The notes beneath the pieces are model-generated. The model was given only the letters and a program-made list of their open reading frames with translations, was not told the DNA's origin and made no database searches. The translations under genes were made by a program, and so were the position numbers. Positions 1-60,902 of a stretch of 64,000 nt of DNA are shown here, in pieces; within the stretch, counting starts at the first letter, position 1, and each line of letters starts with the position of its first letter. Source of the DNA: an uncultured Clostridia bacterium (GTDB lineage Bacteria > Bacillota > Clostridia > Christensenellales > Aristaeellaceae). The DNA lies in contig CAKUFI010000003.1 in assembly GCA_934647305.1 (NCBI GenBank), forward strand, positions 7,915 through 71,914, written 5' to 3'.

Positions 1-915
1 CGTTTCAACGTTCAGGCCCGCCGCCGCGGGGGACTCAATCGGCGCGATGTCTGCGGGCGCATCCGCGGCCTCTTCCGCCTTTTCAGCTTCAGGCTGCTTA
101 TCCGCTGCCTCTTCCGCCTTTTCAGCTTCAGGCTGCTTATCCGCGGTCTCGTTCGCCTGTTCAGCTTCAGGCTGCGCGTCCGCGATCTCTTCGCCCTTTT
201 CAGGCTCCGTCGGCGTATCCGGGAGCTCCTCCGCCGCTTCAGGCTGCGCGCCCGGGAGCTCCTCGCCCTTTTCCGGCTCATAGGGCATTTCTTCGTACTC
301 GTCGAAGTCCTCTTCCTCAATCGAGTCCTCCCTGCGCAGCCGGGACGCGAGCTTCTTCGAGCCGGACTTGAACTTCGCGCCCAGCGCAGAGAGCAGACCG
401 CCCGCCTTCGCCAGGTTTTCCTTCATCGCCTGTGCGAAATCAGGCCCGGCCTCCTCCTCGCCTTCGTCCTCATCCTCGCCGGCTTCTTTATATGCCTCGT
501 CGTAGGCCTCGTCATATGACTCGTTATACGCCTCATCATACGACTCTTTGTACGCTTCCTCGTACGCCTCGTCCGCGGGCGCCTCTTCCGGCTGATCCGG
601 TGCGTCGATGCGCTTTTCCTCAGCCGGTTCCGCCGCAGACTCCGCAGCCGCCTCTTTCGGCGTGCCCGTTTCCTCCTTCGGCGCCTCCTGTTGGGGGATT
701 TCCGGCTTGCGGGGTGCCTTTTCCTGGGCAATCGCTTCCGCCCGGGCCTTCGGCGCTTCCTTTTGCGCGTCCGGCTCCTCGCCCATGCGCGCGGTCACCG
801 TTGCGCTGGTCGTCTTGCTGCGACGCTGCTGATCCTCCGCCCGTTCATACTGCCGTTCCAGTTTTTCCAGGAACTGGCCGCATTCGCGCTCTACATCCTT
901 TGCGTTGCGTGCCAT
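1..915 (-). CDS. Acidic low-complexity/tandem-repeat protein, C-terminus beyond window edge (N-term MARNAKDVERECGQFLEKLERQYER...; repeats AEKAEEAADKQPE and YDEAY)
   Basis: Manual translation of minus frame (codons 3k+1..3k+3) is open from nt 936 down to nt 1 with no stop. It is absent from the ORF track only because it runs off the edge. ATG at 913-915 preceded by GAGGTG SD; alternative ATG at 934-936. E/A/K/P-rich repeats, and 38-nt direct DNA repeats at 60-160. No recognised family. Confidence 0.5.
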   Translation of the reverse strand, partial: MARNAKDVERECGQFLEKLERQYERAEDQQRRSKTTSATVTARMGEEPDAQKEAPKARAEAIAQEKAPRKPEIPQQEAPKEETGTPKEAAAESAAEPAEEKRIDAPDQPEEAPADEAYEEAYKESYDEAYNESYDEAYDEAYKEAGEDEDEGEEEAGPDFAQAMKENLAKAGGLLSALGAKFKSGSKKLASRLRREDSIEEEDFDEYEEMPYEPEKGEELPGAQPEAAEELPDTPTEPEKGEEIADAQPEAEQANETADKQPEAEKAEEAADKQPEAEKAEEAADAPADIAPIESPAAAGLNVET

Positions 916-4471: not shown

Positions 4472-5404
4472 TCAGAACAGGCCGGTCTGGCCGAAGTGCT
4501 TGCTGAGGCGGTCGGCCATCAGAAGCAGCGCGAAGTTGATGATCGAGTTCATCAGACCCACGGCGGACGCGAAGGAATACTTGCCGTCCACCAGGCCGCG
4601 GCGGTAGACATAGGTCGAAATGACGTCCGCCGTCTCGTACACGGAGGGATTGTACAGCAGGATAATCTTTTCAAAGCCCACCGACATGATGCTGCCGATG
4701 CGCAGAATCAGCAAAATCGTGATCGTCGGCAAAATGCCGGGCAGGGTGACGCTCCAGATGCGCCTGAGCCGCCCCGCGCCGTCCACCGCGGCCGCTTCGT
4801 AGAGCTCCTGATCGATGGCGGAGAGCGCCGACAGATAAATGATCGAGTCCCAGCCGACGTTCTGCCAGATGCCCGAGGTGATATAGATCGGGTAGAACCA
4901 CTTGGGTTGTATCAGAAAGTCCACCGAGGCGAGCCCCAGTCCGTTCAAAATGGTGTTGAACAGGCCGCGCGTGGCGCAGAAATCGCGCACCATGGCGCAG
5001 ATGATGACCAGGGAAATGAAGTGCGGCATGTAGGTGATGGTCTGGACGGCCTTCTTAAAGTGCGCCGCCTTGACCTCGTTGAGCAGGATGGCCAGGATAA
5101 TCGGGGCCGGAAAGCCGAAGATCAGCCCCAGACAGCTGATGGACAGGGTGTTGCGGATGGTCTGCCACGCGTACTCGGACTGGAAAAAGTCGATGAAGTG
5201 CTTCAGGCCCACCCATTTGCTGCCCAGAATGCCCCGGGCGACGCGGTAGTCCTTGAAGGCGATCACCAGACCCGCCATGGGCAGGTAGTGAAAGATGACG
5301 TAGTAGGCAACGACCGGGATTATCATCAGGTAGAGTATCCAGCACCGCTTAAAGGCCATGCGGATGCGTTCCGGTCGGTTCAAGCGCGCGTTGACAGCGG
5401 CCAT
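4472..5404 (-). CDS. Carbohydrate ABC transporter permease (LplB/YtcP-like)
   Basis: Motif LSAIDQELYEAAAVDGAGRLRRIWSVTLPGI typical of polysaccharide ABC permeases. AAGGAGG SD. Confidence 0.85.
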   Translation of the reverse strand: MAAVNARLNRPERIRMAFKRCWILYLMIIPVVAYYVIFHYLPMAGLVIAFKDYRVARGILGSKWVGLKHFIDFFQSEYAWQTIRNTLSISCLGLIFGFPAPIILAILLNEVKAAHFKKAVQTITYMPHFISLVIICAMVRDFCATRGLFNTILNGLGLASVDFLIQPKWFYPIYITSGIWQNVGWDSIIYLSALSAIDQELYEAAAVDGAGRLRRIWSVTLPGILPTITILLILRIGSIMSVGFEKIILLYNPSVYETADVISTYVYRRGLVDGKYSFASAVGLMNSIINFALLLMADRLSKHFGQTGLF

Positions 5405-5461: not shown

Positions 5462-5815
5462 GGGAACGTTCGAGAGGCGGCTTTCCTGACCGGGCAGTGC
5501 CCGGCCCCACTTGCTGCCGCGGATTCTATTGACGACTTCGGGAGCCATAGATTGAAGCCCCCGAAGTCTGTGAATTCCCGGAAAGCTCGATAGGATGCAG
5601 CTCTCTCGACCGGGCAGTGCCCGGCCCCACTTGCTGCCGCGGATTCTATTGACGACTTCGGGAGCCATAGATTGAAGCCCCCGAAGTCTGTGAATTCCCG
5701 GTAAGCTCGATAGGATGCAGCTCTCTCGACCGGGCAGTGCCCGGCCCCACTTGCTGCCGCGTATCCTATTGACGACTTCAGGGGGCATAAATTGAAGCCC
5801 CCGAAGTCTGTGAAT
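5462..5815. repeat. Tandem array of three 120-bp units (family A core ...CCGGGCAGTGCCCGGCCCCACTTGCTGCCGC... plus GACTTCGGG-loop-CCCGAAGTC hairpin)
   Basis: Sequence lines 5501-5560 and 5621-5680 are identical; third copy has 3-4 substitutions. The 112-aa track ORF here is a translation artefact of the array. Confidence 0.85.
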
Positions 5816-5881
5816 CCTTTAGAGAAAACCGGCAGGGGTGGCAGCGGCGGGGAGAAGCACTCCTCCCCGCCGCAGGACGCG

Positions 5882-13774: not shown

Positions 13775-15586
13775 ATGGATTATCAGGAGTATCGCAGGCG
13801 CGTTTGGGGCTGCTACACCGGCAAGGCGGTGGGCGGCACGCTGGGCATGCCGTTTGAGGGCGACCTGTCCACGCGACGCCTGACCGGCTACGAGCCCGAG
13901 CCGACCAAGATGCTGCCCAACGACGACCTCGACCTGCAGATCATCGACCTGGAGATCGTGCGCAGGTACGGCCTGCCGGTCAACCGGTATCACCTCTCGA
14001 CGATGTGGAATCACCTGCAGGACGCCGGCCCGGACGAGTACGGCGCGGCGCGCTGGAACGTGGCGCTGGGGCGGCTGGCTCCGCTGTCGGGCTATTTCTG
14101 CAACAAGTTTTACGCGGGCATGGGCGCGGCGATCCGCAGCGAGCTGTGGGCCTGCCTGGCTCCGGGCGATCCGGAGCTGGCGGTGCGGCTGGCGCGCGAG
14201 GACGCCTGCACCGACCATTACGCCGACGGCCTGCACGCCTGCCTGTTCCTGACCGCGGTGGAGAGCGCCGCGTTCGTGGAGAGCGACCTGCATAAGCTCG
14301 TGGATACCGGGCTACGCTTCCTGCCCGAGGACTGCCGCCTGGCCAGGGGGCTGCGGGACAGCTTCTCCTACTGGGCGGAGACGCGCGACCCCTACGCCGC
14401 CCGCGAGCTGCTGCTGCGCGACTATTACGTGCAGAACTGGACGGACGTGACCATCAACCTGTGCCTGATTCTGATCTCCTGGCTGGCCTCGGAGGGCGAC
14501 TTCAGCCGCGCCATCTGCATTGCGGCCGGCCTGGGCTACGACACCGACTGCACCGCCGCCACGCTGGGCTCGATCATGGGCATCATTCACCCGGAGGCGA
14601 TTGCCGAGAGATGGCTGCGGCCGATCGGGGACAGGCTGGTGCTTTCCTCGAGCATCATGGGCCTGCATGAGCCGGAGACCATCGGCGAGTTCAGCGACCT
14701 GGTGGCCGCGACGGCGGTGGAGGTGCTCAATTACTACGGCTCGACGGTGTGCCTGACCGGCCTGCCAGTGGAAAAGCTGCCGCCCATGCACGCGCCCTGG
14801 ACGAGCGACACGCGCGCCGCGGACGAGATGGACTGCCCGCACGAATCGCTGCTGGCCGTCACCCCGCTGTGCGCGCGGCTGATCTATCCCGAGGAGGTAT
14901 CGCTCGCGCCGAAGACCGAGGGCGTGTTCCGCCTGGCGCTGCGCAATCCCTGCGATCAGCCCCTGCGCGGCCGCTTCACCCTGAGCGTGCCGGAGGGCTG
15001 GCTGGTCGAGCCGAAGAGCTTCGACTTCGCCATCTCCCCCGCGCAGAGCGAGCAGTTCTGCTTCTGCGTCGTGCCGGGCGAGATGGCCAAGCGACGCGCG
15101 CGCAGCAACCCCATCGACTTTGACTTTACGCTGGAAAGCGGCGTGCGCTTCAGCGTGACGGGCGATTTGCCCGTGACCATCCCGTGGCTGCGCACCAACC
15201 TGGACACCGGCAAAACGGAGGTCGTCGAGGCGCACGCGGTGTTCCAGGCGGTGCCCGAGGGACACTACCTGTACAGAACCGCGCTCAAGGCCAATGTGAA
15301 CATGCCGGTAAAGCTGGGCGCGATGTCCGAGCGCGCGCTGAAGGTTCGCATGAACGGCGAAGAGGTGCTCGTCACCGACGGCAGCTTCTACGTGCCCGCC
15401 TATCACCGCGGCAAGACCACCGTCGACCTGACCACCATCAAGGGACACGGCGGCTGGAACCAGGTCGAAATCGAGGTGCTGCCCGGCGCGCCCGGCGAGC
15501 TCTTCTTCGGCCTGGCCCGCCCGCACAACTGCTGCGAATGGCTCCAGGGCGCCGAGTACAGTCTCGCGCCGCTGGGGGAACGGTAG
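13775..15586 (+). CDS. ADP-ribosylglycohydrolase family protein with ~300-aa C-terminal extension
   Basis: N-terminal GKAVGGTLGMPFEG and later GYDTDCTAATLGSIMG motifs of the ARH/DraG fold. AAAGGAG SD before ATG 13775. Confidence 0.7.
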   Translation: MDYQEYRRRVWGCYTGKAVGGTLGMPFEGDLSTRRLTGYEPEPTKMLPNDDLDLQIIDLEIVRRYGLPVNRYHLSTMWNHLQDAGPDEYGAARWNVALGRLAPLSGYFCNKFYAGMGAAIRSELWACLAPGDPELAVRLAREDACTDHYADGLHACLFLTAVESAAFVESDLHKLVDTGLRFLPEDCRLARGLRDSFSYWAETRDPYAARELLLRDYYVQNWTDVTINLCLILISWLASEGDFSRAICIAAGLGYDTDCTAATLGSIMGIIHPEAIAERWLRPIGDRLVLSSSIMGLHEPETIGEFSDLVAATAVEVLNYYGSTVCLTGLPVEKLPPMHAPWTSDTRAADEMDCPHESLLAVTPLCARLIYPEEVSLAPKTEGVFRLALRNPCDQPLRGRFTLSVPEGWLVEPKSFDFAISPAQSEQFCFCVVPGEMAKRRARSNPIDFDFTLESGVRFSVTGDLPVTIPWLRTNLDTGKTEVVEAHAVFQAVPEGHYLYRTALKANVNMPVKLGAMSERALKVRMNGEEVLVTDGSFYVPAYHRGKTTVDLTTIKGHGGWNQVEIEVLPGAPGELFFGLARPHNCCEWLQGAEYSLAPLGER

Positions 15587-18835: not shown

Positions 18836-19612
18836 GCAGCCGGCAGGCTGAGCCTGCACCCACTTGCTCCCGCCGATTCTGGCGACGAATTCGGGAACCA
18901 TAAATTGGAGTCCCCGAATTCTGCGGATTTCCAGAAAATTTCTGGAAATCATAAGTCGGCGTTGCCGACTCAGCTTGTCAAAAAAGGTTTTGACAAGCTG
19001 GTGGACGGGGAAGCAAGCTCCCCCGCCACTGCCACCCTCACCAGTCTCCGCTAAAAATCAAAGATTTTTCGGGCGCGGAGCCTGCAGGGAAACGATTTTT
19101 TCTCTGGAAAATGGGATTTTCCGGCGCAAAAATCGCCCCGTGCCCACCGTACACGCCGCTGGGCACGATTGAAAGTTCGAAAGGGCTGCGGCCCTCTCGA
19201 GCTCTCCGGGGGTTTTTTGACAGTCTGAGTCGGCGTTGCCGACAGCCACCTGCTGCCGCGCATCCTCTCGACGACCCTGAGGGCCATAAATGAAGCCCTC
19301 AGGGTCTCTGAATTCCCGAAATTCTCCGAGAATTTCCCGCGGCAGGCAGTGCCTGCACCCACTTGCTGCCGCCGGTTCTGGCGACGAAATTGGGAACCAT
19401 AGATTGGAGTTCCCAATTTCTCCGGTTTTCCGGAATTCTCCGAAAAACTCCCGTCGGCGTTGCCAGCTCGGGCAGTGCAAATATACAGCGTGGGCATGGG
19501 GCGATTTTTGTAAATCACATTTTCCAGAGAAAAAACGTTTCTTGCTTCCCCAGCTGCCAGCTTGTTAAAACTTTTTTAACAAACATACCGGCGCCCTCCG
19601 CTGTGGAGAGCG
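18836..19612. repeat. ~780-bp mosaic repeat island: two family A units (18836-18925, 19330-19420), family D palindromes GTCGGCGTTGCCGAC, and an embedded family E element
   Basis: Multiple hairpin modules shared with islands at 33286-33830, 49900-50235, 58262-58870. Track ORFs inside (19051..19518 etc.) judged artefacts. Confidence 0.8.
18954..19243. mobile_element. MITE-like family E element (~290 bp) bounded by ~20-bp terminal inverted repeats AGTCGGCGTTGCCGACTCAG / CTGAGTCGGCGTTGCCGAC; contains a 13-bp-stem palindrome CAGCTTGTCAAAA-N4-TTTTGACAAGCTG
   Basis: A ~260-bp near-identical copy lies in inverted orientation at 58310-58570. Non-coding; no transposase in window. Confidence 0.45.
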
Positions 19613-21990: not shown

Positions 21991-23286
21991 ATGCAGCACA
22001 TCATCTGTGAAGTGGAAAAGGGCAGCATTGCCGATCAGCTGGGCATACGGCCGGGCGACTACCTGCTCGCCATCAACGGGCAGAACGTCGTGGACTGGCT
22101 GGACTACCAGGCCTTCTGCTGCACGGAAAAGCTGAGCCTGATCACCCGGCGAGACGACGAGGAAATCGTCTATGAGCTGGAAAAGGACGAGTACGAACCG
22201 CTCGGCCTGAAGTTTGACAGCCAGCTGATGAGCCGCGTGCGCGACTGCGTGAACCACTGCATGTTCTGCTTCGTCGACCAGCTGCCCGACCATGTGCGCC
22301 CGACGCTGCGCGTCAAGGACGACGACTGGCGGCTGTCGATGATGATGGGCAATTACGTGACGCTGACCAACGTATCCGATAAGGAGCTGGAGCGCATCGT
22401 CGCGCGGCACGCCTCGCCGCTGTACATCTCGGTGCACGCGACCGACCCGGAGCTGCGCGCGAAGCTGCTGGGCCAGAAGCTGGGCGCAAAGCTCATGCAG
22501 CAGCTTACCCGCCTGCGCGAGGGCGGCATTCAGTTTCACGCCCAGGCGGTGCTCTGCCCGAACCTCAACGACGGCAAGGTGCTCGAGAAGACGGTCGAGG
22601 ATCTGGCGGCGCTCTGGCCCTGCTGCCGGTCGCTGGCGCTGGTGCCGGTGGGCCTGACCGGACACCGCGAGGGGCTGTGCCCGCTGCGCAAATATACCCG
22701 GGAAGAAGCCGCCGCGGTGATCGACGCGGCCGAGGTCTGGCAGGAGCGCTTTTTGCGCGAGTTTGACACGGTGTTCGTCTATCCGTCGGACGAGTTTTAC
22801 CTGCAGGCCGGGCGCGACGTACCGCCCGACTCGTTCTACGGCGACTACGACCAGATCGAAAACGGCGTGGGACTGGTTCGCCTGCTGCGCACGGAGTTCG
22901 AGGAGGCGCTTGGGTACGCCGACTTTTCCACCGCCCGCCCCGCGCACCTGGTCATTGCCACCGGCGTGTCGGCCGGGCCGATCCTCGAGGCGCTGCTCTC
23001 TCCCCTGCACATACCGGGCGTAAAGATCGACGTGATCGCCATCGAGAACCACTTCTTTGGCCCCAGCGTCACCGTGACCGGCCTTCTGACCGGCGGTGAC
23101 CTGATCCGCGCGCTCAAGGACTATCCCTGCGACAAGGTGCTCATCACCGAACGCATGCTGCGCGAAACCGAGGACGTTTTTCTGGACGACATGACGCTCG
23201 ACGAGGTGCGTGAGAAGCTGGGCAGGCCGGTCGTCAAGGTGGGCACGCACGGCGACGAGCTGCTCGAGGCGATACTGCACGCCTGA
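21991..23286 (+). CDS. DUF512-family radical SAM protein with N-terminal PDZ domain
   Basis: CVNHCMFC = CxxxCxxC radical-SAM cluster motif. PDZ-like N-terminus (GSIADQLGIRPGDYLLAINGQNV). Conserved DUF512-der-plsY neighbourhood. Confidence 0.7.
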   Translation: MQHIICEVEKGSIADQLGIRPGDYLLAINGQNVVDWLDYQAFCCTEKLSLITRRDDEEIVYELEKDEYEPLGLKFDSQLMSRVRDCVNHCMFCFVDQLPDHVRPTLRVKDDDWRLSMMMGNYVTLTNVSDKELERIVARHASPLYISVHATDPELRAKLLGQKLGAKLMQQLTRLREGGIQFHAQAVLCPNLNDGKVLEKTVEDLAALWPCCRSLALVPVGLTGHREGLCPLRKYTREEAAAVIDAAEVWQERFLREFDTVFVYPSDEFYLQAGRDVPPDSFYGDYDQIENGVGLVRLLRTEFEEALGYADFSTARPAHLVIATGVSAGPILEALLSPLHIPGVKIDVIAIENHFFGPSVTVTGLLTGGDLIRALKDYPCDKVLITERMLRETEDVFLDDMTLDEVREKLGRPVVKVGTHGDELLEAILHA

Positions 23287-23317: not shown

Positions 23318-23470
23318 TCGAGGGACGTTCCTTCGGGCGGCCGCAGCCGCCCGTAAAATGCGGTTTTCCTCTGGAAAACCGCTTCCCTGCAGGCTAGATG
23401 GCCTGTGGGTGGGGTCTGGGGAGGCGCGGCCGTTCAGGGCGCCCTCCCCAGTCAGCCGGGGCGCCGGCGA
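23318..23470. repeat. Family C structured repeat (~150 bp, three hairpins incl. GGGGAGGCGCGGCCGTTCAGGGCGCCCTCCCC), copy 1
   Basis: Copy 2 at 43340-43500 shares about 85% identity. Hairpin 1 differs by compensatory changes (GCGGTTTTCC/GGAAAACCGC vs GCGATTTCC/GGAAATCGC). Confidence 0.7.
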
Positions 23471-32285: not shown

Positions 32286-33272
32286 TCATTTTCTTGCGGC
32301 CGCTTTTCGGGAGAGCTCGAGAGGGGCTTTTCTCAGAAAAGCCGCCTCTCGATCGTTCCCTCCCCCCAGCCAGATGCCGGCAAAAACACAGGCGAACGCG
32401 ATGAGATAGCCCGGGCGCAGGATGTTTTCGCCCAGCAGAACGGCCGAACACAGCGCGCCGAAGAGCGGCTCGGCAAACTTGATCTGGTTGAGCCGGGAAA
32501 GGTCGTTGTGCGCCAGCAGCAGGTTCCACAGGGCGTAGCCCAGGCAGGAGGCCAGGCACAGGTAGCCAAACAGTCCCAGCGCGCCGGGCGTGACTTGCCC
32601 AAACCGCCCGCCCAGCAGCAGTCCCGCCGCCGTGAGCATCACCCCGCCGAACAGCTGCGCCCAGGCGGTGACGCTCAGCGGATCCAGTCGGTCGTAGGCG
32701 GCCTTCGACACCAGCATCGAGGCGGCCGAGCACAGCGACGCGGCCAGCACCAGCGCCTCGCCCCGTCCCAGGTGGATCTTCAGCCCATCCAGGTTGATCG
32801 CCAGAATGCCCGCGAAGCCCAGCAGACCGCTGACCAGCTTGCGCGCGGTGAAGCGATCCTCCTTCCTGAACAGAAACGCAAAGCAGATCAGCAGCAGCGA
32901 CCCGGTCTGCTTGAGCAGGGCGGTTTTCGAGCTCTCGATCAGGGAGACGCCGAGGTAGGTGCAGGTGTAGTGCGCCGCGTAGCCGGTCAGCGCGATGAGC
33001 AGTATGGGGCGCAGCGAGCGCCTCTCGGGCAGGCAGGCCCGAAGCGAACGTCCGCCTGAACAGGCGCAGGCCGCGAGCAGCAGCGCCGCGCCGCAGACCA
33101 GAAAGCGCACGCCCGCAAACAGCAGGATGTCCGCCGGGCGGGCCGCGTCGATCGACAGCGCGCGATAGCTCAGCTTGATGCAGGGATACAGCGACCCCCA
33201 GAAAAACATGGCGAGCAGCGCCAGCGGCGTGGCGGCCTTCCGGCTGCCGAACAGATCTTTTTTCATATGCAT
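32286..33272 (-). CDS. DMT-superfamily (EamA-like) transporter; last ~20 codons read through a family B repeat
   Basis: 10 predicted TM segments. Start MHMKKDLF at 33272 (or 33266). Track ORF extends further 5' into the repeat island (artefact). Confidence 0.7.
   Translation of the reverse strand: MHMKKDLFGSRKAATPLALLAMFFWGSLYPCIKLSYRALSIDAARPADILLFAGVRFLVCGAALLLAACACSGGRSLRACLPERRSLRPILLIALTGYAAHYTCTYLGVSLIESSKTALLKQTGSLLLICFAFLFRKEDRFTARKLVSGLLGFAGILAINLDGLKIHLGRGEALVLAASLCSAASMLVSKAAYDRLDPLSVTAWAQLFGGVMLTAAGLLLGGRFGQVTPGALGLFGYLCLASCLGYALWNLLLAHNDLSRLNQIKFAEPLFGALCSAVLLGENILRPGYLIAFACVFAGIWLGGGNDREAAFLRKAPLELSRKAAARK
32288..32348. repeat. Family B hairpin unit (GAGAGGGGCTTTTCTCAGAAAAGCCGCCTCTC) overlapped by the 3' end of the DMT transporter CDS
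   Basis: Related units at 37340-37380, 58275-58314, 58570-58610, 60725-60755. Confidence 0.5.
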
Positions 33273-33285
33273 TTCTACTCTTTCC

Positions 33286-33830
33286 GTGAAATCCAGAGAT
33301 TTAAGAGGCAGCCCTTCCGGTCGGCAGGGCCGACAGCCACCTGCTGCCGCCGGGTCGGCAGGGCCGACAGCCACCTGCTGCCGCGGGGTCGGCAGGGCCG
33401 ACAGCCACCTGCTTCCGCCGAAGCCAAGACGAATCCTTCGGCCATAAATTGAAGCCTCAGGATTCTTCGTTTGGAGAGAATCAGATGCAGTACCCCGCAA
33501 GAGCTGCGGCAGGCTGAGCCTGCACCCACTTGCTGCCGCGGGTTCTGGCGACGAATTCGGGAACCATAAATTAGAATTCCCGAATTCTCCGAATCCACGA
33601 AATCCTTCGTGGATTGACGGTCGGGCAGGCTGAGCCTGCACCCACTGGCTGCCGCCGGACAGCACACGAAATTGGGAACCATAGATTAGAGTCCCCAATT
33701 TCTCCGTTTTTCCGGAATTCTCCGAAAAACTCCTGTCGGCATTGCCGACTCGGGCAATGGCGCGGGGAGCGTGCTTCCCCGATCACCAGCTTGCCAAACC
33801 CCTTTTGACAAGCTGAGGCGGCCTTTCGGA
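33286..33830. repeat. Mosaic repeat island: 3 tandem 33-bp units GGTCGGCAGGGCCGACAGCCACCTGCTGCCGCC (33322-33420), two family A units (33500-33590, 33615-33710), partial family E end (33735-33830)
   Basis: Direct sequence comparison with the 18836-19612 and 58262-58870 islands. Confidence 0.8.
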
Positions 33831-37327: not shown

Positions 37328-37450
37328 CTTATTGTTGGGGGAACGTTCGAGAGGCGGCCTTTCTGAGAAAGGCCCCTCTCGAGCTCTCCCGGAAAGCACT
37401 TTGATCCGCGCAAGGAATCACCGAAAGAAACGTAATTCCCCGAATGCAGG
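37328..37450. repeat. Family B unit (GGGAACGTTCGAGAGGCGGCCTTTCTGAGAAAGGCCCCTCTCGAGCTCTCCCGGAAAGCACTTTGATCCGCGCAAGGAATCACCGAAAGAAACGTAATTCCCCGAATGCAGGCGCTGC)
   Basis: About 95% identical over the hairpin and GGAAAGCACTTTGATCCGC segment to 58570-58620; CCCCGAATGC tail conserved at 58650-58690. Confidence 0.6.
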
Positions 37451-43222: not shown

Positions 43223-43339
43223 CGCATCATCAGAAATTCCCCTCAGGCAATATGCCCGAGGGGAATTCGCGTATCCGGAAAGCCGCAAGGCAGTCCCCGC
43301 ACCCCTCCCCTCACGCGTCCTGACAGACTCTCGTCTGTC

Positions 43340-43500
43340 AGACGCTCCCGGGCGGCCGCAGCCGCCCGTAAAATGCGATTTCCCCCAGGAAATCGCTGCC
43401 TTGCAGCCCCGTTGGGGCTGTGGGTGGGGTCTGGGGAGGCGCGGACGTTCAGGCCGCCCTCCCCAGCAAACCGGGCCGCGGCAGCAAAGCTGTCGCGGCC
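43340..43500. repeat. Family C structured repeat, copy 2 (immediately 3' of htpG)
   Basis: See copy 1 at 23318-23470. Confidence 0.7.
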
Positions 43501-43536
43501 CGGCGTTCCCTGGGTAGAATCGCTATATTTCTCTCA

Positions 43537-47689: not shown

Positions 47690-47756
47690 TGTTTTCCGGG
47701 TGGGGCCTGGGGAGGCGCCTTTTTCAAAAAGGCGGCCTCCCCAGCGTTCCCCTCGT
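47690..47756. repeat. Family C-type hairpin (GGGTGGGGCCTGGGGAGGCGCC-TTTTTCAAAAA-GGCGGCCTCCCCAG) abutting the recG stop
   Basis: Related to 23395-23460 and 43415-43480 and to 50040-50100. Confidence 0.5.
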
Positions 47757-49899: not shown

Positions 49900-50235
49900 T
49901 CCCCTTTCAGGAGAGCCTCATGCCGGCGCGGAGCGGACGGAGATGTTCACAAACGCAGAATTCGGGAACTCCAATTGATGGTTCCCGAATTCATCGCCAG
50001 AATCCGCGGCAGCAAGTGTGTGGGCAACGCCCACCAGACAAACTTCGGTGGGGGTCTGGGGGAGCGCGAAGCGAAGCGGAGCCTCCCCCAGCGGGAGACG
50101 CTGCAATGCGGAACCACGCAGACCTTGGCCGCTTCAATCTATGGCGGCCAATGGTCGTCGCCAGAATCCGCGGCAGCAAGGGGCCGTCGGCCCTGCCGAC
50201 CGGCAGCACCGCCTCCAGGCTCAGCCTGGTAGATG
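49900..50235. repeat. Repeat island with two inverted-orientation family A units and a GTCGGCAGGGCCGAC palindrome; overlapped by the methyltransferase 3' end
   Basis: GAATTCGGGAACTCCAATTGATGGTTCCCGAATTC and GGCAGCAAGTG(T/G)G elements are reverse complements of family A modules. Confidence 0.7.
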
Positions 50236-50966
50236 CGGAGGTATTCGGCGGTGGGCGCGCCGTCGTCCGACTGGAGAATGAGCGGGGGCAGCCAGTGCAG
50301 CATCGAGCCGCCGCCCTTGATCGCCTCCACGAGCACCAGCTTGGGCGCGTCGCCCGCGCGGTGGTGGACGGTGCGCACTCGCTTGGGCTCGAGGCGGGCG
50401 TTTCGCATGGCGCACATCAGCTCCAGCATGCGCGGCGCTGGAAACACGACCGCAAACCGCCCGCCCGTTCGCAGCAGCCGAAAGGCGGAAAGGCACACGT
50501 CCTCAATGGTGCAGTCGCCCTCATGCCGCGCAATGCGCTCGGTTTCGCGCTCGCTGCGCAGCGTGCCGCCCGCCTTGCCGTAGGGCGGGTTGCAGACGGC
50601 CAGCGTGTATTTTTCACAGCCCAGGACGCGATGCGCCTGCCTGAAGTCCTCGCAGAGCACCGAAATCTGGTCCTCAAGGCCGTTGAGAAGCACGCTGCGA
50701 GCGGCTATATCAGCCATATCGGGCTGGATTTCCACCGCGGTGCAGCGGACATTTACCTGATGAGAGACGGCCAGCAGCGCGATCACGCCGGTGCCCGTAC
50801 CCAGGTCGACCATCTGCTCGCGGGGCCTGGGCTGCGCAAAGTCGGCCAGCAGCACCGCGTCGGTGCCATAATGAAAGGCCTTTTTCTTTTGCAGGATGAC
50901 GAGCGAGGGGCCATTCAGCTCCTCCAGCCGCTCGCCCTCCCGGATCAAAGCAGTCTGAATCCCCAT
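50139..50966 (-). CDS. Class I SAM-dependent N6-adenine-type methyltransferase (tRNA m6A37 TrmN6/YfiC-like or RsmD-like); C-terminal ~30 aa encoded by repeat DNA
   Basis: DLGTGTGVIAL SAM motif and NPPY catalytic motif. Start overlaps the P60 gene end by 22 nt. Confidence 0.55.
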   Translation of the reverse strand: MGIQTALIREGERLEELNGPSLVILQKKKAFHYGTDAVLLADFAQPRPREQMVDLGTGTGVIALLAVSHQVNVRCTAVEIQPDMADIAARSVLLNGLEDQISVLCEDFRQAHRVLGCEKYTLAVCNPPYGKAGGTLRSERETERIARHEGDCTIEDVCLSAFRLLRTGGRFAVVFPAPRMLELMCAMRNARLEPKRVRTVHHRAGDAPKLVLVEAIKGGGSMLHWLPPLILQSDDGAPTAEYLRIYQAEPGGGAAGRQGRRPLAAADSGDDHWPP

Positions 50967-53803
50967 GAGAAGTTACCATACGTCGAGAACCGGCTGATGA
51001 CCACCTGGCCGCGCACCGACGAGCAGTGGATAAACTGGTCGTCGCCCAGATAGATGCCCGCGTGGTCGCTCAGGTCGTCGTCGGTCTTGACCGTGTCGAA
51101 GATCAGCAGGTCGCCGCGCTCCAGCTTCTTCGGGTCGGTGATCTTGGGGTAAACCGTCATGTAGCCCTGCACGATCACGCGCCCGGAGATCTTCACACCC
51201 ACCTTGCCGTAGCAGTACTTGGTGTAGTTGGAGCAGTCGAAGGTGTCCGGCCCGCCCGAGTTGAGCACGTACCTGCAGCCCAGCTTGCTCTCGGCCACGG
51301 CGATCAGCTTCTCGATCTTCTCGGCGCGGGTGACCGCCTCGCGCTCCTCCAGCTCTCGCTGCACCTTGTCCTGATACTCCTTGAGCGTCAGGGCGTTTTT
51401 ATCGTTCATGGCGGCCCGGGTGGTCTTGTCGGCCGCGCCGGACTCAGTGAGCGCATGCGCCTTCTGGAACAGCCTGACCGCCGTCTCCAGCTCCGCGCCG
51501 TAGCTGCCGTCCAGCTTGCCGGTATAATAGCCCAGCGCGTTCAGGCGAACCTGTACCTGCCGCACCGCCTCGCCCTTGTCGCCCTTTTTGACCGCGCAGG
51601 TGCGATAGTACTCGGACAGGCTGATTCCCCCGCCCGCGTTAAGCAGCTTGCGCATGTCGGCCGTGATGTTCTTTTCGACGGTCAGGTCGTTCGCCTGGGC
51701 AAAGAGCCTGGCCGCGCGCAGCAGCGTCTCGCCGAAGCTGCCGTCCAGCGCGCCCGAATAGTAGCCCAGGTTGAGCAGCTGCCGCTGCACCGCGCGCACC
51801 GCCGCGCCCTTTTCGCCGTATTTGATCGGGCAGTAGGTCAGGTAGAGATCGTAGGACACCGCGTCGCTCGAGAAAATCTGAAGCCGGGTCTCCACGTCCG
51901 CCTTGCCGGTCACGGGAAGCGAATGCGCCGTCTGGAACAGCTTCACCGACGTGACCAGCGCGTTGTCAAAGGTGATGTTCACCTCGCCGGTATAGTAGCC
52001 CAGCACCTTGAGCCGGGTCTTGAGCAGGCGCACCGTGGTGGTCTTTTCGCCCTTGGAAATGACGCGCCTTGCGTCGTAGGCGGCGCGGGTGACCGCGTCG
52101 GGCGCGTTCATCTTCTTGCGGGTGTCGGTGTCGGCCTTGCCGGTGACGCGCAGGGATGCGGCGGTCTGGTAGGCCTTGACCGCGGTTTTTGTGTTCGCGT
52201 CGTAGCTGCCGGTCACGTCCCAGGCATAGAAGCCCAGCTGGATCAGGCGGGTCTGAAGCAGCTTGACCGCCTCGCCCTTACTGCCGGACTTGAGCGGGCA
52301 GAAGGTATCGTACTGCGCCCGGGTCACGCCGTTTCCTGCGTTGAGCAGCTTGCGGGTGGGCGCGTCGGCCTTGCCGGTTTTGCTCAGACTGTTGGCCATC
52401 TGGAAATCGCTCGCCGCCTGCGAGGTCGTCCTGTCGAAGCGGCCGGTGACCTCGCCGGTATAGTAGCCCAGGTCCTTCAGCTGGCGCTGCACCTGGCTGG
52501 CCGCGTCGCCCCTGTCGCCCACCGAAACCGGGCGAATCAGGTCGTATTCGGCCCTCGTGACCGCCTGCGCGCCGTTCATGACCTGCCGCGTGGACGCGTC
52601 GGCCGTGCCGGTGGCCTTGAGCGCGTTGGCCTGCTGAAAGAGCGAGACCGCGCTCTTGAGCGCCTTGTCATAGGTGCAGTCGATCGTGCCGGCGAAGTAT
52701 CCAAGGGCCGTCAGGCGCGCCTTGAGCACCCTCACCGCCGCGCTGGACGCGCCCGGCCGGAGCGCGAGCGCCTGATAATAGGCCGAGGAGTCCTTCGCCT
52801 GCTCGCCGTTCATCAGTGCGCGGGTCGCGCTGTCGGCTCTTCCGGTGGCCTTCAGCCCGTTGGCCGACTGGAACTCGGAAACCGCCGTGCGGGTTGCCTT
52901 GTCGTAGGACTCGGTCATCGTGCCGGCGAAGTAGCCCAGCTCGGCCAGCCGCGCCTTGAGCAGCTTCACCGCCGCGTTCTTCTCGCCGTACTTGAGCGGA
53001 CACACCTTGTCGTATTCTGAGGCGGGCAGCGCGTCCTGCGCGTTCATCCGCTTTCTGGTCGCCGCGTCAGCCTTTCCCGTGGCCTTCAGGCCGTGCGCCG
53101 TCTGAAAGCGCTTCACAGCCGCCTTGACCGCCGCTCCATATTTGCCGTCCGCCTCGCCGGTATAGTAGCCCAGCGCCCTGAGCCTCGTCTGCAGAAGCCG
53201 CACGGCCTCGCCCCTGCTGCCCGAGGACAGCGCGCAAAACGTCTGATACTCGGCAAAGGTCACGGCCGTCTCGCCGTTCATGAGTTTTCGGGTATTGCTG
53301 TCGGCGCTGCCGGTCGCCTTCAGGCCGTTCGCGGTCTGAAACGCCTTAACCGCCGACTTGACCGCGCTGGCGTACCTGCCGTCGACCTTGCCGTCATAGT
53401 AGCCCAGTGCGCTCAGGCGCTCCTGAAGCCGCTTCACGGCCTCGCCCTTACTGCCTGAGGACAGCGGGCAGAACTCGTCATACTGGCTCCTGGTGACCGC
53501 CAGCTCGCCGAAGAGCAGCTGCTGCTCCTCCCCGGTCAGCGAGCCGGTCTGCCGCAGGCCGTTGCCCGCCTGAAACAGCTTTGCCGCCGCGCGGGTCGCC
53601 GAGTCGAAGGTTTCGCTGGCCTTTCCATCGTAGTAGCCCAGCTCGGTCAGGCGGCGCTGCGCGGAAAGCACATCGTCCCCGCGCATGCCCATCTTGAGCG
53701 TTCTCGCCCCCTCGGCCCAGGCGGCGCCCAGGCACAGAGCCAGAAGCACCGCCGTCAGGCAGATCAGACCTTTCAGAAGCGAATGAGCAGAACGCGTCTT
53801 CAT
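50945..53803 (-). CDS. Secreted NlpC/P60 (C40) peptidase with ~12 tandem peptidoglycan-binding (PG_binding_1-like) repeats
   Basis: Signal peptide MKTRSAHSLLKGLICLTAVLLALCLGAAWA. Repeats of consensus LQxRLxxLGYYxGxxDGxYxxxxxxAVKxFQxANGLKATGxAD. C-terminal DCSNYTKYCY...HAGIYLGDDQFIHCSS catalytic Cys/His. AAAGGAG SD before ATG 53803; the track ORF carries a 114-aa junk extension. Confidence 0.8.
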   Translation of the reverse strand: MKTRSAHSLLKGLICLTAVLLALCLGAAWAEGARTLKMGMRGDDVLSAQRRLTELGYYDGKASETFDSATRAAAKLFQAGNGLRQTGSLTGEEQQLLFGELAVTRSQYDEFCPLSSGSKGEAVKRLQERLSALGYYDGKVDGRYASAVKSAVKAFQTANGLKATGSADSNTRKLMNGETAVTFAEYQTFCALSSGSRGEAVRLLQTRLRALGYYTGEADGKYGAAVKAAVKRFQTAHGLKATGKADAATRKRMNAQDALPASEYDKVCPLKYGEKNAAVKLLKARLAELGYFAGTMTESYDKATRTAVSEFQSANGLKATGRADSATRALMNGEQAKDSSAYYQALALRPGASSAAVRVLKARLTALGYFAGTIDCTYDKALKSAVSLFQQANALKATGTADASTRQVMNGAQAVTRAEYDLIRPVSVGDRGDAASQVQRQLKDLGYYTGEVTGRFDRTTSQAASDFQMANSLSKTGKADAPTRKLLNAGNGVTRAQYDTFCPLKSGSKGEAVKLLQTRLIQLGFYAWDVTGSYDANTKTAVKAYQTAASLRVTGKADTDTRKKMNAPDAVTRAAYDARRVISKGEKTTTVRLLKTRLKVLGYYTGEVNITFDNALVTSVKLFQTAHSLPVTGKADVETRLQIFSSDAVSYDLYLTYCPIKYGEKGAAVRAVQRQLLNLGYYSGALDGSFGETLLRAARLFAQANDLTVEKNITADMRKLLNAGGGISLSEYYRTCAVKKGDKGEAVRQVQVRLNALGYYTGKLDGSYGAELETAVRLFQKAHALTESGAADKTTRAAMNDKNALTLKEYQDKVQRELEEREAVTRAEKIEKLIAVAESKLGCRYVLNSGGPDTFDCSNYTKYCYGKVGVKISGRVIVQGYMTVYPKITDPKKLERGDLLIFDTVKTDDDLSDHAGIYLGDDQFIHCSSVRGQVVISRFSTYGNFSWGFRLL

Positions 53804-53832
53804 CTCAATCTTCTCCTTTGTATCCGGTACGG

Positions 53833-57724: not shown

Positions 57725-58300
57725 GTGGCAAAGCTATACTTTCGATACGGAGCGATGGGTTCGAGCAAGACGGCGAACGCCATCATGGTGCAGTACAACT
57801 ATCACGAGCGTGGGCAGAAGGCGCTCATGCTCAAGCCCAGGCTCGAAACCCGTGACGGTGAGAAGACCGTCCGCTCGCGCAGCGGCCTGAGTGCGCCCTG
57901 CGAGTACGTCGAGGATCTGGATACAATCGACGTGTCCGCCTACGACTGCCTGATCGTAGACGAGGCGCAGTTCCTGACCAAATCGCAGGTCGAGCGGCTG
58001 GTGCGCGTCGTGGACGAGCAGAACGTCCCGGTCATCGCCTACGGCCTGCGCGCCGACTTCCGCGGCAACCTGTTCGAGGGCAGCATGTGGCTGCTCGCCT
58101 GGGCGGACGCCATCGAGGAAATCAAAACCGTCTGCTGGTGCGGCCGCAAGGCTACCTGCAACGCCCGCATACACGACGGCCGCGTCGTCAAGGACGGCCA
58201 GCAGATCCTGCTCGGCGGCAACGAAAGCTACGTCAGTCTCTGCCGCAAACACTGGCGCGAGGGGAACGTTGGGGAAACGATCGAGAGGCGGCCTTTCTGA
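57725..58300 (+). CDS. tdk: Thymidine kinase; last ~12 codons encoded by a family B repeat
   Basis: GTG start giving MAKLYFRYGAMGSSKT (P-loop), matching E. coli MAQLYFYYSAMNAGKS. Zn ribbon CWCG...C...C near the C-terminus. Confidence 0.9.
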   Translation: MAKLYFRYGAMGSSKTANAIMVQYNYHERGQKALMLKPRLETRDGEKTVRSRSGLSAPCEYVEDLDTIDVSAYDCLIVDEAQFLTKSQVERLVRVVDEQNVPVIAYGLRADFRGNLFEGSMWLLAWADAIEEIKTVCWCGRKATCNARIHDGRVVKDGQQILLGGNESYVSLCRKHWREGNVGETIERRPF

Positions 58301-58870
58301 GAAAGGCCCCTCAGACTGTCAAAAAACCCCGGAGAGCTCGAGAGGGCCGCAGCCCTTTCGAACTTTCAATCGTGCCCAGCGGCGTGTACGGTGGGCACGG
58401 GGCGATTTTTGCGCCGGAAAATCCCATTTTCCAGAGAAAAAATCGTTTCCTTGCAGTCTCCGCGCCCGAAAAATCTTTGATTTTTAGCGGAGACTGGTGA
58501 GGGTGGCAGTGGCGGGGGAGCTTGCTTCCCCGTCCACCAGCTTGTCAAAACCTTTTTTGACAAGCTGAGGCGGCCTTTCTGAGAAAGGCCCCTCTCGAGC
58601 TCTCCCGGAAAGCACTTTGATCCGCAAAACTGATTAGTCGGACAGACGTGATACCCCGAATGCGGCGCAGGAGGGGGAGAACGCTCCTTCGCGGGAGCAC
58701 GGCGCTGAGCCTCTCCTGAAAGGGGAGGTGCCCGCTATGCGGGCGGAGGGGTTCCGGGCGGCAGCCAAACCCCACCCGGAAAGCACTTTGATCCGCGCAA
58801 ACTGATTCGGCAGACAGACGCGGCACCCCGAATGCGGCGCGGGAAAGAAACGTTGAAGCGGCGAACAGTC
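58262..58870. repeat. Mosaic repeat island: family B hairpins (58275-58314, 58570-58610) flanking an inverted copy of the ~260-bp family E element (58310-58570), then family B/CCCCGAATGCGGCG tails
   Basis: 58310-58570 is the reverse complement (near-identical) of 18955-19215. Confidence 0.8.
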
Positions 58871-58919: not shown

Positions 58920-60902
58920 GTGGCGAAGGGATTTTTGCCGGTTACGGCGCAGGAAATGCGTGATTTGGGCTGGGAGCAGCCGGATTTTGTGTTCGTCACC
59001 GGCGACGCATACGTAGATCATCCCTCGTTCGGCCTGGCCATCATCTCGCGGGTGCTGGAGCACGCCGGGTACAGGGTGGCCATGCTGCCCCAACCGGAGT
59101 ACCACTCCTGCGAGGAGTTCAAGCGCTTCGGCCGGCCGAGGCTGGGCTTTCTGGTGATGGCGGGCGTGATCGACAGCATGGTCAATCACTACACCGTGGC
59201 CAAAAAGCGCCGCTCGGAGGACGTGTATTCGCCCGGCGGCGTGGGCGGCAGGCGGCCCGACCGCGCCACGATCGTCTACTGCAACCGCATCCGGGAGGTC
59301 TATGGCAGCGTGCCGATACTCATCGGCGGGGTCGAGGCCTCGCTGCGCCGTTTCGCGCACTACGACTACTGGGACGACCGGGTGCGCAACTCGATCCTGG
59401 TGGACAGCGGCGCCGACCTGCTGATCTACGGCATGGGTGAGAACACGATTCAGACGGCGGCCAAATGGCTGGAGACCGGCCTGCCTTTCAGTCAATCGCG
59501 CATTCCGGGCACCTGCATCCTGTGCAAAGAGCCGCTGGCGGACTACCTGCTCATCGAGTCGATGGAGGAGGTCGCGCATGACAAGGAAGCCTACGCCCGC
59601 GCCTTCAAGACGCAATACGACGAGCAGGATCCGATTCGCGGCCGGGGCATCTGCCAGAAGCACGGCAGGAGCTACCTGGTCGCGCACAAGCCCTGCATGC
59701 CGCTGACGCAGGAGCAGCTGGACGAGACTTATGCCCTGCCCTACATGCGCACCTGGCATCCGATGTACGACGCGGCGGGCGGCATTCCGGCGCTTCAGGA
59801 GGTCGAGTTCTCGATCGCGCACAACCGCGGCTGCTTCGGCTCGTGCTCGTTCTGCGCGCTGACCTTTCATCAGGGGCGCATTGTGACCTCGCGCAGTCAC
59901 GAATCGGTGCTCGCCGAGGCCAAACTGCTGACCAGGCGGCCCCGCTTCAAGGGCTACATACACGATGTGGGCGGCCCGACCGCCAACTTCCGCCGCCCGG
60001 CCTGCAAGGGTCAGCTGACGCGCGGCGCGTGCAAGGGCAAGCAGTGCCTGTTCCCTCAGCCCTGCAAAAACCTGGACGCGGATCACGAGGACTACATCAA
60101 ACTCCTGAGCGAGGTGCGCTCGCTGCCCGGCGTGAAGAAGGTATTCGTGCGCAGCGGCGTGCGGTTCGACTATGTGCTGGCCGACAAGGCACAGAAGTTC
60201 CTGCCCGAGCTGGTCAGGCATCACGTCTCCGGTCAGCTCAAGGTCGCGCCGGAGCACGTGTCCCCCCGCGTGCTGCGCTACATGGGCAAGCCCGAGGTGT
60301 CGGTCTATGAGGAATTCGTGCGCCGCTACAACGCGGAGAACGAAAAGGCGGGGCTCAAGCAGTTCCTCGTACCCTACTATATGTCCTCGCATCCCGGCTG
60401 CACACTCAAGGACGCGATCGAGCTGGCGCTGTTCATCAAGCGGAGCGGACACCGCCCCGAGCAGGTGCAGGACTTCTACCCCACCCCCGGCACGCTGTCC
60501 ACCGCCATGTTTTACACCGGCCTCGACCCGCGCGACATGAAGCCGGTTTACGTGCCCAGGGATCCCCACGAGAAGGCCATGCAGCGCGCGCTCATGCAGT
60601 ACTTCATTCCCGCCAACCGGCCGCTCGTGCTCGAGGCGCTCCGCCGCGCAGGCCGCACTGACCTGATCGGACACGGCCCCGACTGTCTGGTCTGGGACGA
60701 TCACCGCAGGGGGAACGTTGGGGAGACGGCTTTTCTGAGAAAAGCCTCTCCCCAAGCCCCTCACGAAAAGCGCCATGATCCGCGCAAACAAGCTCGGTAC
60801 ACAGATGAAGCTCCCCGAATGCGGCGTGGAGGGAACGTCGAGGAAACGGCGAAAAAAGCCTCTCCCGGAAAGTACTCTGATCCGCGCAGGAAACGCAAAT
60901 AA
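58920..60902 (+). CDS. YgiQ-family (UPF0313) radical SAM protein; 3' ~200 nt of the ORF runs through repeat DNA, true C-terminus uncertain
   Basis: FLPVTAQEMRDLGWEQPDFVFVTGDAYVDHPSFG matches the conserved YgiQ N-terminus. CxxxCxxC cluster motif CFGSCSFC. GTG start with GGAGG SD (the track uses an upstream ATG lacking an SD). Confidence 0.75.
   Translation: MAKGFLPVTAQEMRDLGWEQPDFVFVTGDAYVDHPSFGLAIISRVLEHAGYRVAMLPQPEYHSCEEFKRFGRPRLGFLVMAGVIDSMVNHYTVAKKRRSEDVYSPGGVGGRRPDRATIVYCNRIREVYGSVPILIGGVEASLRRFAHYDYWDDRVRNSILVDSGADLLIYGMGENTIQTAAKWLETGLPFSQSRIPGTCILCKEPLADYLLIESMEEVAHDKEAYARAFKTQYDEQDPIRGRGICQKHGRSYLVAHKPCMPLTQEQLDETYALPYMRTWHPMYDAAGGIPALQEVEFSIAHNRGCFGSCSFCALTFHQGRIVTSRSHESVLAEAKLLTRRPRFKGYIHDVGGPTANFRRPACKGQLTRGACKGKQCLFPQPCKNLDADHEDYIKLLSEVRSLPGVKKVFVRSGVRFDYVLADKAQKFLPELVRHHVSGQLKVAPEHVSPRVLRYMGKPEVSVYEEFVRRYNAENEKAGLKQFLVPYYMSSHPGCTLKDAIELALFIKRSGHRPEQVQDFYPTPGTLSTAMFYTGLDPRDMKPVYVPRDPHEKAMQRALMQYFIPANRPLVLEALRRAGRTDLIGHGPDCLVWDDHRRGNVGETAFLRKASPQAPHEKRHDPRKQARYTDEAPRMRRGGNVEETAKKASPGKYSDPRRKRK

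Follow-up and report, generated by a model that had tools for sequence, protein, structure and literature searches.

Family C, a Multi-Copy Mosaic of Hairpin Modules in the Intergenic DNA of an Uncultured Gut Clostridia Lineage

Family C is a GC-rich hairpin element found in two intergenic copies, A and B, in a 64,000-nt stretch of DNA (contig CAKUFI010000003.1, positions 7,915–71,914; hereafter the window) from an uncultured Clostridia bacterium. The element was shown to be multi-copy, to be present or absent at orthologous sites, and to consist of hairpins that are exchangeable modules shared with other repeat families. The module type of its last hairpin (H4) occurs in both orientations to transcription, and hairpin potential is held while the stem sequence changes. 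We therefore favor, with a probability of roughly 0.65, the interpretation that Family C is a non-autonomous mosaic repeat of hairpins, restricted to its lineage and comparable to BIME, BOX, or NIME elements, and that it spreads as DNA within one narrow Christensenellales-like gut lineage. The material comprised 64 kb of host genome and short contigs, with two Family C copies and nine H4-type modules in the window.

Copies and Range of Family C

The Family C core was found to be exactly 118 nt long in both window copies, which are both located on the plus strand (Table 1). The two cores showed 86.6% DNA identity, or 83% with flanks counted in, close to the approximately 85% given in an initial annotation of this DNA, which had correctly placed the copies at 23318–23470 and 43340–43500. 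That annotation had them immediately 3′ of a DUF512 gene and of htpG, but the core of copy A begins 47 nt past the DUF512 stop codon and that of copy B 126 nt past the htpG stop codon. A 28-nt block (GGGCGGCCGCAGCCGCCCGTAAAATGCG) is common to copies A and B and was matched at ≤3 mismatches in 0 of 100 shuffles.

A covariance model constructed from four Family C copies (model R1) matched the window at 23331–23453 and 43346–43468, and besides these copies it matched contig L003 at 68–190, contig L004 at 1–114, and a variant at 4798–4906 of L003. This variant represents a fifth copy and is located on the same metagenome-assembled genome (MAG) contig as the copy at 68–190. A weak match of model R1 was also obtained on the minus strand at 43256–43371. 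Full cores were 87–91% identical in pairwise comparisons. Contigs L003 and L004 have nothing in common with the window except repeats, and at least five distinct genomic sites therefore carry Family C. These five or more loci are spread over two genomes, so that the element is not limited to the pair of copies first described; the covariance-model scan found the further copies, with covariation, in another genome. Copy B is in addition carried by the same-species contigs L015 and L018.

For the species-wide scan one fairly strict pattern of two linkers was used (CCGTAAAATGCGN{32,52}GTGGGTGGGG). Among 185,579 species representatives it gave two matches, both at contig ends of one MAG from Hadza gut samples (CAKUFB01, an uncultured Clostridia bacterium), and the term restricted as used here covers this 22-base two-linker signature only. 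A metagenome scan with CAGCCGCCCGTAAAATGCG returned the htpG-locus copy from another sample and one chance match, and nothing else. No Family C match was found in plasmid and phage collections (blastn), and neither the H1 block nor the GGGGAACG-head module was matched in viral scans. A protein database searched with concatenated six-frame translations of the core, aimed at spurious open reading frames (ORFs) over other copies, contained no match, and a contig search with the last complete gene of the window returned one 3.9-kb contig only. The nearest named relatives belong to Candidatus Pullichristensenella, with about 59% protein identity, and the host is thus a member of a poorly sampled Christensenellales-like lineage.

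Contigs of six independent assemblies were found to end in or at Family C (L002, L003, L004, L005/L018, L013, and L015). Contig ends of this kind are the usual sign of a repeat with more copies than an assembler can resolve, which suggests that this also applies here; it explains why metagenome assemblies of this organism break at particular intergenic sites.

Hairpin Architecture and Covariation

Both copies were predicted to fold as a row of local hairpins, not as one long stem. The predicted RNA folds were −95.6 kcal/mol for copy A and −117.3 kcal/mol for copy B (z = −5.3 and −6.9, respectively, compared to dinucleotide shuffles), and the base composition of Family C is about 70% GC. The core has the order H1, TAAAAT, H2, TTCCYT, H3 (variable), GGGTGGGGT, and H4, and is usually followed by a variable hairpin and a CGTTCCC(C) tail; a CGTTCCCC tail is usual among the short conserved linkers. 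The three hairpins originally described thus become four conserved ones, the first (H1; Table 1) having been missed, with a variable fifth after the core. H1, the linkers, and the outer H4 stem were invariant across full copies, and H3 was a different perfect hairpin in nearly every copy. At the fifth place, the 15-bp hairpin of copy B seems to be an additional one that was inserted between H4 and the usual tail; the hairpin that L004 has there is a different one.

The paired substitutions quoted for one stem in the initial annotation were genuine. They concern H2 (consensus GCGRTTTYCC...GGRAAAYCGC), which reads GCGGTTTTCC/GGAAAACCGC in copy A compared to GCGATTTCC/GGAAATCGC in copy B. Pair 33/49 is A-U in six sequences and G-C in one (copy A), and pair 36/46 is U-A in six sequences and C-G in one (the variant copy). 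In an alignment of seven sequences, 98% of the cells pair, and 16 pairs were changed on both sides, compared to 3.8 in shuffles and 1–6 in slid-partner controls. Most of the double changes trace to the variant copy at L003 4798–4906, in which H1 is kept, H2 is compensated, and in place of H3 and H4 stand hairpins that also end a 254-nt repeat of the window; point compensations were limited to two positions, both in H2. Since H3 and H4 are replaced wholesale, the dominant process is module swapping between conserved linkers and not slow compensatory drift. The earlier argument for selection on structure therefore stands as far as the conservation of hairpin potential is concerned, but most of the signal consists of swaps of whole hairpins. 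Furthermore, perfect Watson–Crick palindromes fold alike on either strand and as DNA, and covariation therefore cannot tell RNA from hairpin DNA here.

A difference within the species was seen next to copy B. A 34-nt hairpin (GCGGGGCGGGGCGGGGC-TTC-GCCCCTCCCCGC) bounded by CCCCGC direct repeats is kept in L015 (4766–4800) and not in the window (43300/43301). This looks like slippage-mediated loss of a hairpin module, and it follows that hairpins come and go within the species.

Neither copy is covered by a hairpin-plus-T-run, in agreement with the initial view that the element is not a simple terminator; the scan for intrinsic terminators gave nothing in copy B and, in copy A, no more than a trivial match of 5 bp that spans the TAAAAT linker. 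At gathering thresholds, Rfam 15 gave 0 matches across the window, and at E ≤ 10 only noise was returned for both copies, the best local hits scoring 20–23 bits compared to family thresholds of 43–84 bits, so that no known class of repetitive extragenic palindromes was identified by this search. The stable conserved structure (fold z of −5 to −7) and the presence of several copies would fit independently transcribed, multi-copy small RNA genes. This explanation is nevertheless very improbable, as no sigma-70-like promoter or intrinsic terminator was found in or beside copies A and B, copy A fills the gap from a stop codon to the ribosome-binding site (RBS) of the next gene within an operon, the element is not conserved in relatives, and the Rfam search was empty.

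Several further identities were rejected. In three copies a frame begins at a conserved ATG, but this small ORF has no RBS, is frameshifted in L004, and shows substitutions that track stems and not codons. A promoter in the TAAAAT linker had no −35 partner. An integron attC site, a retron non-coding RNA, and a group II intron fragment were dismissed on the basis of wrong architecture, no integrase or reverse transcriptase nearby, and no Rfam hit.

Filled and Empty Sites in Relatives

The spacer between the DUF512 gene and the GDSL-lipase gene was found to be 224 nt in the window compared to 20 nt in L012, where the element is absent; the DUF512 gene of L012 shows uniformly about 94% DNA identity to that of the window along its length. 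In L014 (about 85% DNA identity) the corresponding spacer is 52 nt, unrelated in sequence, and also without the element. Because two outgroups are without the segment, an insertion in the lineage of the window is the parsimonious reading. After htpG, three relatives (L016, L017, and L020; proteins 82–86% identical to those of the window) have hairpin-plus-T-run terminators and no Family C, but the htpG site is a weaker test than the DUF512 site since synteny breaks down 3′ of htpG. An association with htpG and the DUF512 gene, as suggested earlier, is thus not specific. The element is missing at the orthologous DUF512 (L012 and L014) and htpG (L016, L017, and L020) positions, which is not what a gene-specific leader, riboswitch, or 3′ untranslated region would show.

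Contig L013, with an 88% identical DUF512 protein and the insertion, was considered as evidence of incongruent presence and discarded, since it is a mosaic contig with a 3′ part about 100% identical to the window. Similar junctions were observed at L013:2536–3863, L018:10001–12065, and L020:329–2393, where the 5′ part of a gene is 60–75% identical to the window and the 3′ part with the adjoining repeat 97–100% identical; the 3′ end of L020 matches L016 rather than the window. These mosaics reflect either chimeric assembly at shared sequence or recombination beside repeats, and the three contigs, which combine divergent and near-identical segments, were left out as independent evidence.

The H4-Type Module and the Repeat-Rich Surroundings

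H4 was shown to belong to a wider module: its head is G-rich (GGGWGRGGY), its stem covaries (CTGGGGAGG, CTCGAGAGG, TTGGGGAGA, or CTGGGGGAG), and its tail is CGTTCCCC. A covariance model of this module (model R2), which replaced a too noisy regular-expression census of head-hairpin-tail modules, detected nine sites in the window, five on the plus strand and four on the minus strand, and three sites on the 5-kb MAG contig L003. Relative to the flanking genes, two of the nine sites are sense and four antisense, while the other three are situated between convergent genes, and a strand-specific RNA role for the module is therefore disfavored. The recurrence of a Family C hairpin at 47690–47756 and 50040–50100 that had been noted initially is accounted for by this module: the last-hairpin head, stem, and tail (GGGTGGGGY, CTGGGGAGG/CCTCCCCAG, and CGTTCCCC) are shared, but the two sites belong to other composite repeats and are not copies of Family C. 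The bare 10-mer GGGGAGGCGC is not over-represented (20 matches at ≤1 mismatch compared to 16.7 expected).

Interspersed repeats that recur from spacer to spacer were found in 12 of the 28 spacers of the window and make up 2.3 of 9.0 kb of intergenic DNA. About 32 kb of contigs from relatives (L012, L014, L016, L017, and L020) contained no H4-type module (model R2) and almost none of the repeats of the window.

Table 1. Coordinates of Family C copies, their hairpins, and H4-type modules in the window
Feature	Position	Strand	Description
Copy A, whole segment	23287..23495	+	209 nt between DUF512 stop codon (TGA, 23284–23286) and GDSL-lipase RBS; corresponds to ATGA alone in sister-lineage contig L012 (alignment)
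Copy A, core H1–H4	23334..23451	+	Model R1 132 bits; 87–90% pairwise identity to other copies
Copy A, H1	23334..23353	+	CGGGCGGC-CGCA-GCCGCCCG; same in every copy, 8 pairs never vary; followed by linker TAAAAT (23354–23359)
Copy A, H2	23360..23382	+	GCGGTTTTCC-TCT-GGAAAACCGC; point-compensated stem
Copy A, H3	23383..23415	+	Inner stem CAGGC-TAGATG-GCCTG (23390–23405); linkers TTCCCTG and TGGGTGGGGT can lengthen the stem via G·U pairs, plus strand only
Copy A, H4	23416..23451	+	CTGGGGAGG-C-GCG...CGC-CCTCCCCAG, bulged C; member of head-stem-tail module (model R2 match 23405–23457, 63 bits)
Copy A, extra small hairpin	23455..23468	+	GCCGG-GGCG-CCGGC; variable fifth position
Copy B, core	43349..43466	+	Model R1 132 bits; H1 43349–43368, H2 43375–43396, H3 43404–43420, H4 43431–43466
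Copy B, H5	43471..43510	+	15-bp hairpin CCGGGCCGCGGCAGC-AAA-GCTGTCGCGGCCCGG, then tail CGTTCCC
Copy B, left flank	43233..43341	+	Other repeat modules: hairpin GAAATTCCCCTC...GAGGGGAATTC (43233–43269); remnant CCCCGCACCCCTCCCC (43295–43310), at the place of the 34-nt hairpin of strain L015; hairpin CTGACAGAC-TCTC-GTCTGTCAG (43320–43341)
H4-type module	32307..32362	+	Stem CTCGAGAGG/CCTCTCGA; 50 bits; overlaps 3′ end of EamA ORF
H4-type module	37337..37394	-	54.8 bits; about 20 nt upstream of start codon of minus-strand permease gene, sense
H4-type module	47696..47753	+	In a different composite repeat; 70.6 bits; ends about 10 nt before recG stop codon, antisense to recG
H4-type module	50045..50100	+	Stem CTGGGGGAG/CTCCCCCAG; 47 bits; between two minus-strand genes, antisense to both
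H4-type module, split by 254-nt insert	58271..58610	-	Halves 58271–58316 and 58559–58610, both antisense to flanking plus-strand genes
H4-type module	60709..60766	-	62.9 bits; among plus-strand genes, antisense

Proposed Spread as DNA and Alternative Explanations

If Family C spreads at the DNA level, its copies would be moved by a trans-acting enzyme that reads single-stranded hairpins and linkers. A candidate would be an HUH/Y1 transposase, as in the system formed by repetitive extragenic palindromes (REPs) and REP-associated tyrosine transposases (RAYTs; PMC3333891), or another hairpin-directed recombinase. The mobilizing enzyme is one that we purely infer, since the window is without a transposase. 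Template switching or slippage between hairpins may then shuffle, duplicate, or delete modules, and stems may stay paired because the hairpin serves as the substrate, through repair templated by the hairpin that fixes both arms, or for both reasons. A cassette inserted behind a stop codon would be transcribed passively along with its operon; copies A and B must be transcribed, since copy A is located inside an operon and copy B behind htpG at a place where relatives have a terminator. By analogy to BOX elements and to REPs and bacterial interspersed mosaic elements (BIMEs), the structure of about −80 kcal/mol would probably act as a 3′-exonuclease barrier or a partial block to transcription. 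Any such effect on mRNA ends is regarded as a side-effect of insertion and not as the reason why the element exists, and some Family C copies may have been co-opted.

A number of observations weigh against spread of a mobile DNA repeat. Pfam scans and annotation revealed no transposase, RAYT, or other recombinase among the approximately 40 ORFs of the window. The core is without terminal inverted repeats, and at the DUF512 site there is neither a target-site duplication nor a clean junction, the ATGA of the empty site being replaced and not flanked when compared to L012 and L014. The count of Family C copies covers 64 kb and short contigs. Each of the five copies fits a sense orientation relative to a neighboring gene. 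The extension of H3 consists of four G·U pairs that can form on the plus strand only and contributes 5–6 kcal/mol in three of the five copies, an outcome that would be expected of constraint at the RNA level, and conserved linkers with variable stems are also a mark of functional structured RNA.

The last three of these points also favor an explanation in which the cassette is primarily a cis-acting RNA structure, recruited to several operons, that would stabilize or end the transcript upstream of it or shield the cistron downstream. The orientation of copy A matches that of its operon and the orientation of copy B that of htpG, the L004 copy is upstream of, and sense to, a plus-strand gene, and one-sided C-G to U-G changes were seen at pair 58/81. 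Besides, htpG is here without a canonical terminator while its relatives have one, so that something else must set the htpG 3′ end. We consider a cis-acting role as the primary one possible but unlikely. The spacer is empty in a lineage with about 94% DNA identity, with the genes 20 nt apart, and the operon evidently manages without the element; the genes flanking the five copies are mutually unrelated; whole hairpins are exchanged for unrelated ones; there is no Rfam family and no U-tract; and the antisense copies of the H4-type module also count against it.

Defined ends would be expected if the element were a classical MITE (miniature inverted-repeat transposable element) or an end left behind by an insertion sequence, such as a palindrome-associated derivative of IS200/IS605, moved by cut-and-paste or peel-and-paste. 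In favor of this, a 254-nt element of the window has terminal inverted repeats, copies that are 98% identical, and linker and hairpin modules in common with Family C. Copy B, L015, and the L003 copy at 68–190 moreover have a minus-oriented G-rich hairpin and ACCCCNCCCC to the left of the core, which mirror GGGTGGGGT and H4 on the right. The 118-nt core itself is without a terminal inverted repeat, H1 and H4 being unrelated, and the left mirror module is absent or decayed in copy A. No target-site duplication was found at the single site with an empty allele, and the window contains no transposase gene. An origin of this type is thus improbable, more so than a cis-acting RNA.

A further, quite speculative possibility concerns the H4-type hairpin (head GGGTGGGGY, stem CTGGGGAGG/CCTCCCCAG, and bulged base), which might be the recognition site of a conserved enzyme acting on single-stranded DNA, such as an HUH Rep/RAYT-like protein or an Ssn-like nuclease. 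If true, Family C and its sister repeats would be chromosomal site arrays that could affect DNA processing at replication forks or in transformation, and not inert parasites. A hint, at the level of sequence resemblance, is the apparent occurrence of the H4 head and stem beside origin stem-loops of circular Rep-encoding single-stranded (CRESS) DNA viruses and in the repeats of an unrelated bacterial contig. The two viral sequences (L010:1729–1786 and L021:1067–1121, from IMG/VR) are from related CRESS-DNA viruses of about 2 kb that are apparently circular, have 35% GC, and carry a GC-rich hairpin with the H4 head and stem. These two small viruses encode an HUH Rep, and L021 encodes a protein with Viral_Rep plus helicase. 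The match in L010 (GTGGGTGGGGTCTGGGGAGG...CCTCCCCAG) is identical to H4 over 20 nt, and in L021 the hairpin is located a few bases from the origin stem-loop (loop TAGTATTAC). This resemblance may be a coincidence or a shared recognition site. Two other contigs, L022 (131–410 and 5726–6005) and L023 (several sites), contain their own interspersed multi-hairpin repeats with a GGTGGGGTCTGGGGAGG...CCCTCCCCAG module; they are filed as viral yet encode an ABC permease and an aminotransferase and have 55–57% GC. The H4-type module thus also occurs outside the lineage of the window.

Comparison with Known Repeat Systems

Family C resembles the REPs and BIMEs of Enterobacteria and Pseudomonas, which are mobilized by RAYT Y1 enzymes (PMC3333891; PMC2817692; PMC3733652), in being an intergenic, multi-copy set of GC-rich hairpins with short conserved linkers and mosaic clusters. 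In both cases the repeats are located behind stop codons and between convergent genes, differ among close relatives, and retain the potential for hairpins while their sequence drifts. Transcribed REPs are believed to act on the 3′ ends of mRNAs (PMC3333891; PMC2817692; PMC3733652), and one end of their palindromes bears a conserved tetranucleotide, GTAG or CGTC (PMC3733652). No GTAG or CGTC abuts H1–H4 in four aligned copies of Family C, where H1 is followed by TAAA and H4 by CGTT (L004), CGAA, CAAA, or TCAG; Firmicutes and Clostridia were not represented in the survey of GTAG/CGTC-tagged REPs. A REP is a single imperfect palindrome of 20–40 nt, whereas the unit of Family C is 118 nt with four different hairpins in fixed order, although each of these hairpins alone is REP-sized (20–36 nt). 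The copy number of REPs is typically >100 per genome. A BIME consists of one 20–40-nt palindrome alternating in orientation, whereas the hairpins of Family C are unrelated and not inverted copies of one another, though the linkers are conserved.

The pneumococcal BOX element (boxA-boxB-boxC; PMC3049150) is similar in being modular, with exchangeable structured sub-units, in being from a Firmicute, and in having no transposase of its own. BOX is limited to one species and its nearest relative, is co-transcribed with neighboring genes, and was judged to be parasitic and not functional (PMC3049150). Its modules are AT-rich and about 45–60 nt each, with boxB iterated, whereas Family C consists of four short, GC-rich, perfect hairpins with G-rich and C-rich linkers. 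With approximately 70% GC, sequence homology to BOX is implausible, and the likeness is functional only.

The dRS3/NTS repeats of Neisseria (PMC11893778; PMC1797815) share with Family C the arrangement of short conserved sequences around variable segments in mosaic intergenic arrays. There, a hairpin repeat is recognized as single-stranded DNA by a dedicated enzyme, SsnA, and by a phage recombinase (PMC11893778; PMC1797815). NTS consists of one 28-nt hairpin that has CGTC as its head, whereas the sequence and architecture of Family C differ, and the window showed no Ssn-like GIY-YIG gene. Correia elements and other MITEs are likewise about 100–250 nt, non-coding, intergenic, insertion-polymorphic, and transcribed into structured RNA; they have terminal inverted repeats, a fixed target-site duplication, and one long hairpin, whereas the Family C core is without the first two, has four local hairpins, and is preceded by a mirror-image G-rich module on its left in only some copies. 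Family C is thus placed outside REP/BIME, BOX, and dRS3/NTS, and is new within the already known class of interspersed mosaic hairpin repeats.

The results document a dense mosaic system of hairpin repeats in an uncultured, high-GC lineage of gut Clostridia. In genome annotation such cassettes should be masked as repeats rather than listed as candidate riboswitches or small RNAs. Strains with and without the insertion between the DUF512 and lipase genes offer a natural experiment on the effects of a structure of about −80 kcal/mol on operon polarity and mRNA decay, and the exchange of hairpins between conserved linkers could help to find the enzyme that moves such elements in Firmicutes.

Other Repeats of the Window

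The 254-nt repeat is present at 18964–19217 and 58321–58574 as an inverted pair with 98% DNA identity and MITE-like terminal inverted repeats, CTCAG(A/C)(C/T)TGTCAAAAAA. Both inserts are flanked by a direct duplication of the whole host hairpin, of 15 nt (GTCGGCGTTGCCGAC) at the first site and about 28 nt (GAGGCGGCCTTTCTGAGAAAGGCCCCTC) at the second. A duplication of variable length that covers a hairpin is unusual for a target duplication made by a transposase. The hairpins at the right end of this repeat are those that replace H3 and H4 in the variant at L003:4798–4906.

A separate hairpin family, GACGA(A/C)TTCGGGA...CCCGAA(G/T)TC, was found at 5531–5569, 5651–5689, 5771–5809, 18884–18922, 19383–19421, 33428–33466, and 33550–33588. 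All copies start with GACG, the reverse complement of the CGTC tag known from one REP superfamily, and they are often paired with a second module (GGCAGGCTGAGCCTGCACCCACTTGCTGCCGC); the region 5474–5833 is a tandem array of three 120-nt units.

Repeats at 58268–58300, 32286–32365, 15578–15586, and 60706–60902 overlap the 3′ ends of ORFs and supply the last codons and the stop codon. The ORFs ended in this way are those for a thymidine kinase (last approximately 11 codons), an EamA transporter, an ADP-ribosylglycohydrolase (with the GGGGAACGGTAG head containing the stop codon), and a YgiQ-like radical-SAM protein (C-terminal stretch).

Two further repetitive regions are associated with ORFs. 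A large minus-strand ORF at 50945–54406, with ten PG_binding_1 repeats and an NlpC/P60 domain, explains repeats with a period of 234 nt; these are ordinary coding repeats and have no relation to the intergenic elements. A tandem array with a period of 39 nt is located at the left edge of the window (22–279), inside a high-GC3 ORF (GC content at third codon positions) that runs off the window, and is probably a repetitive protein segment.

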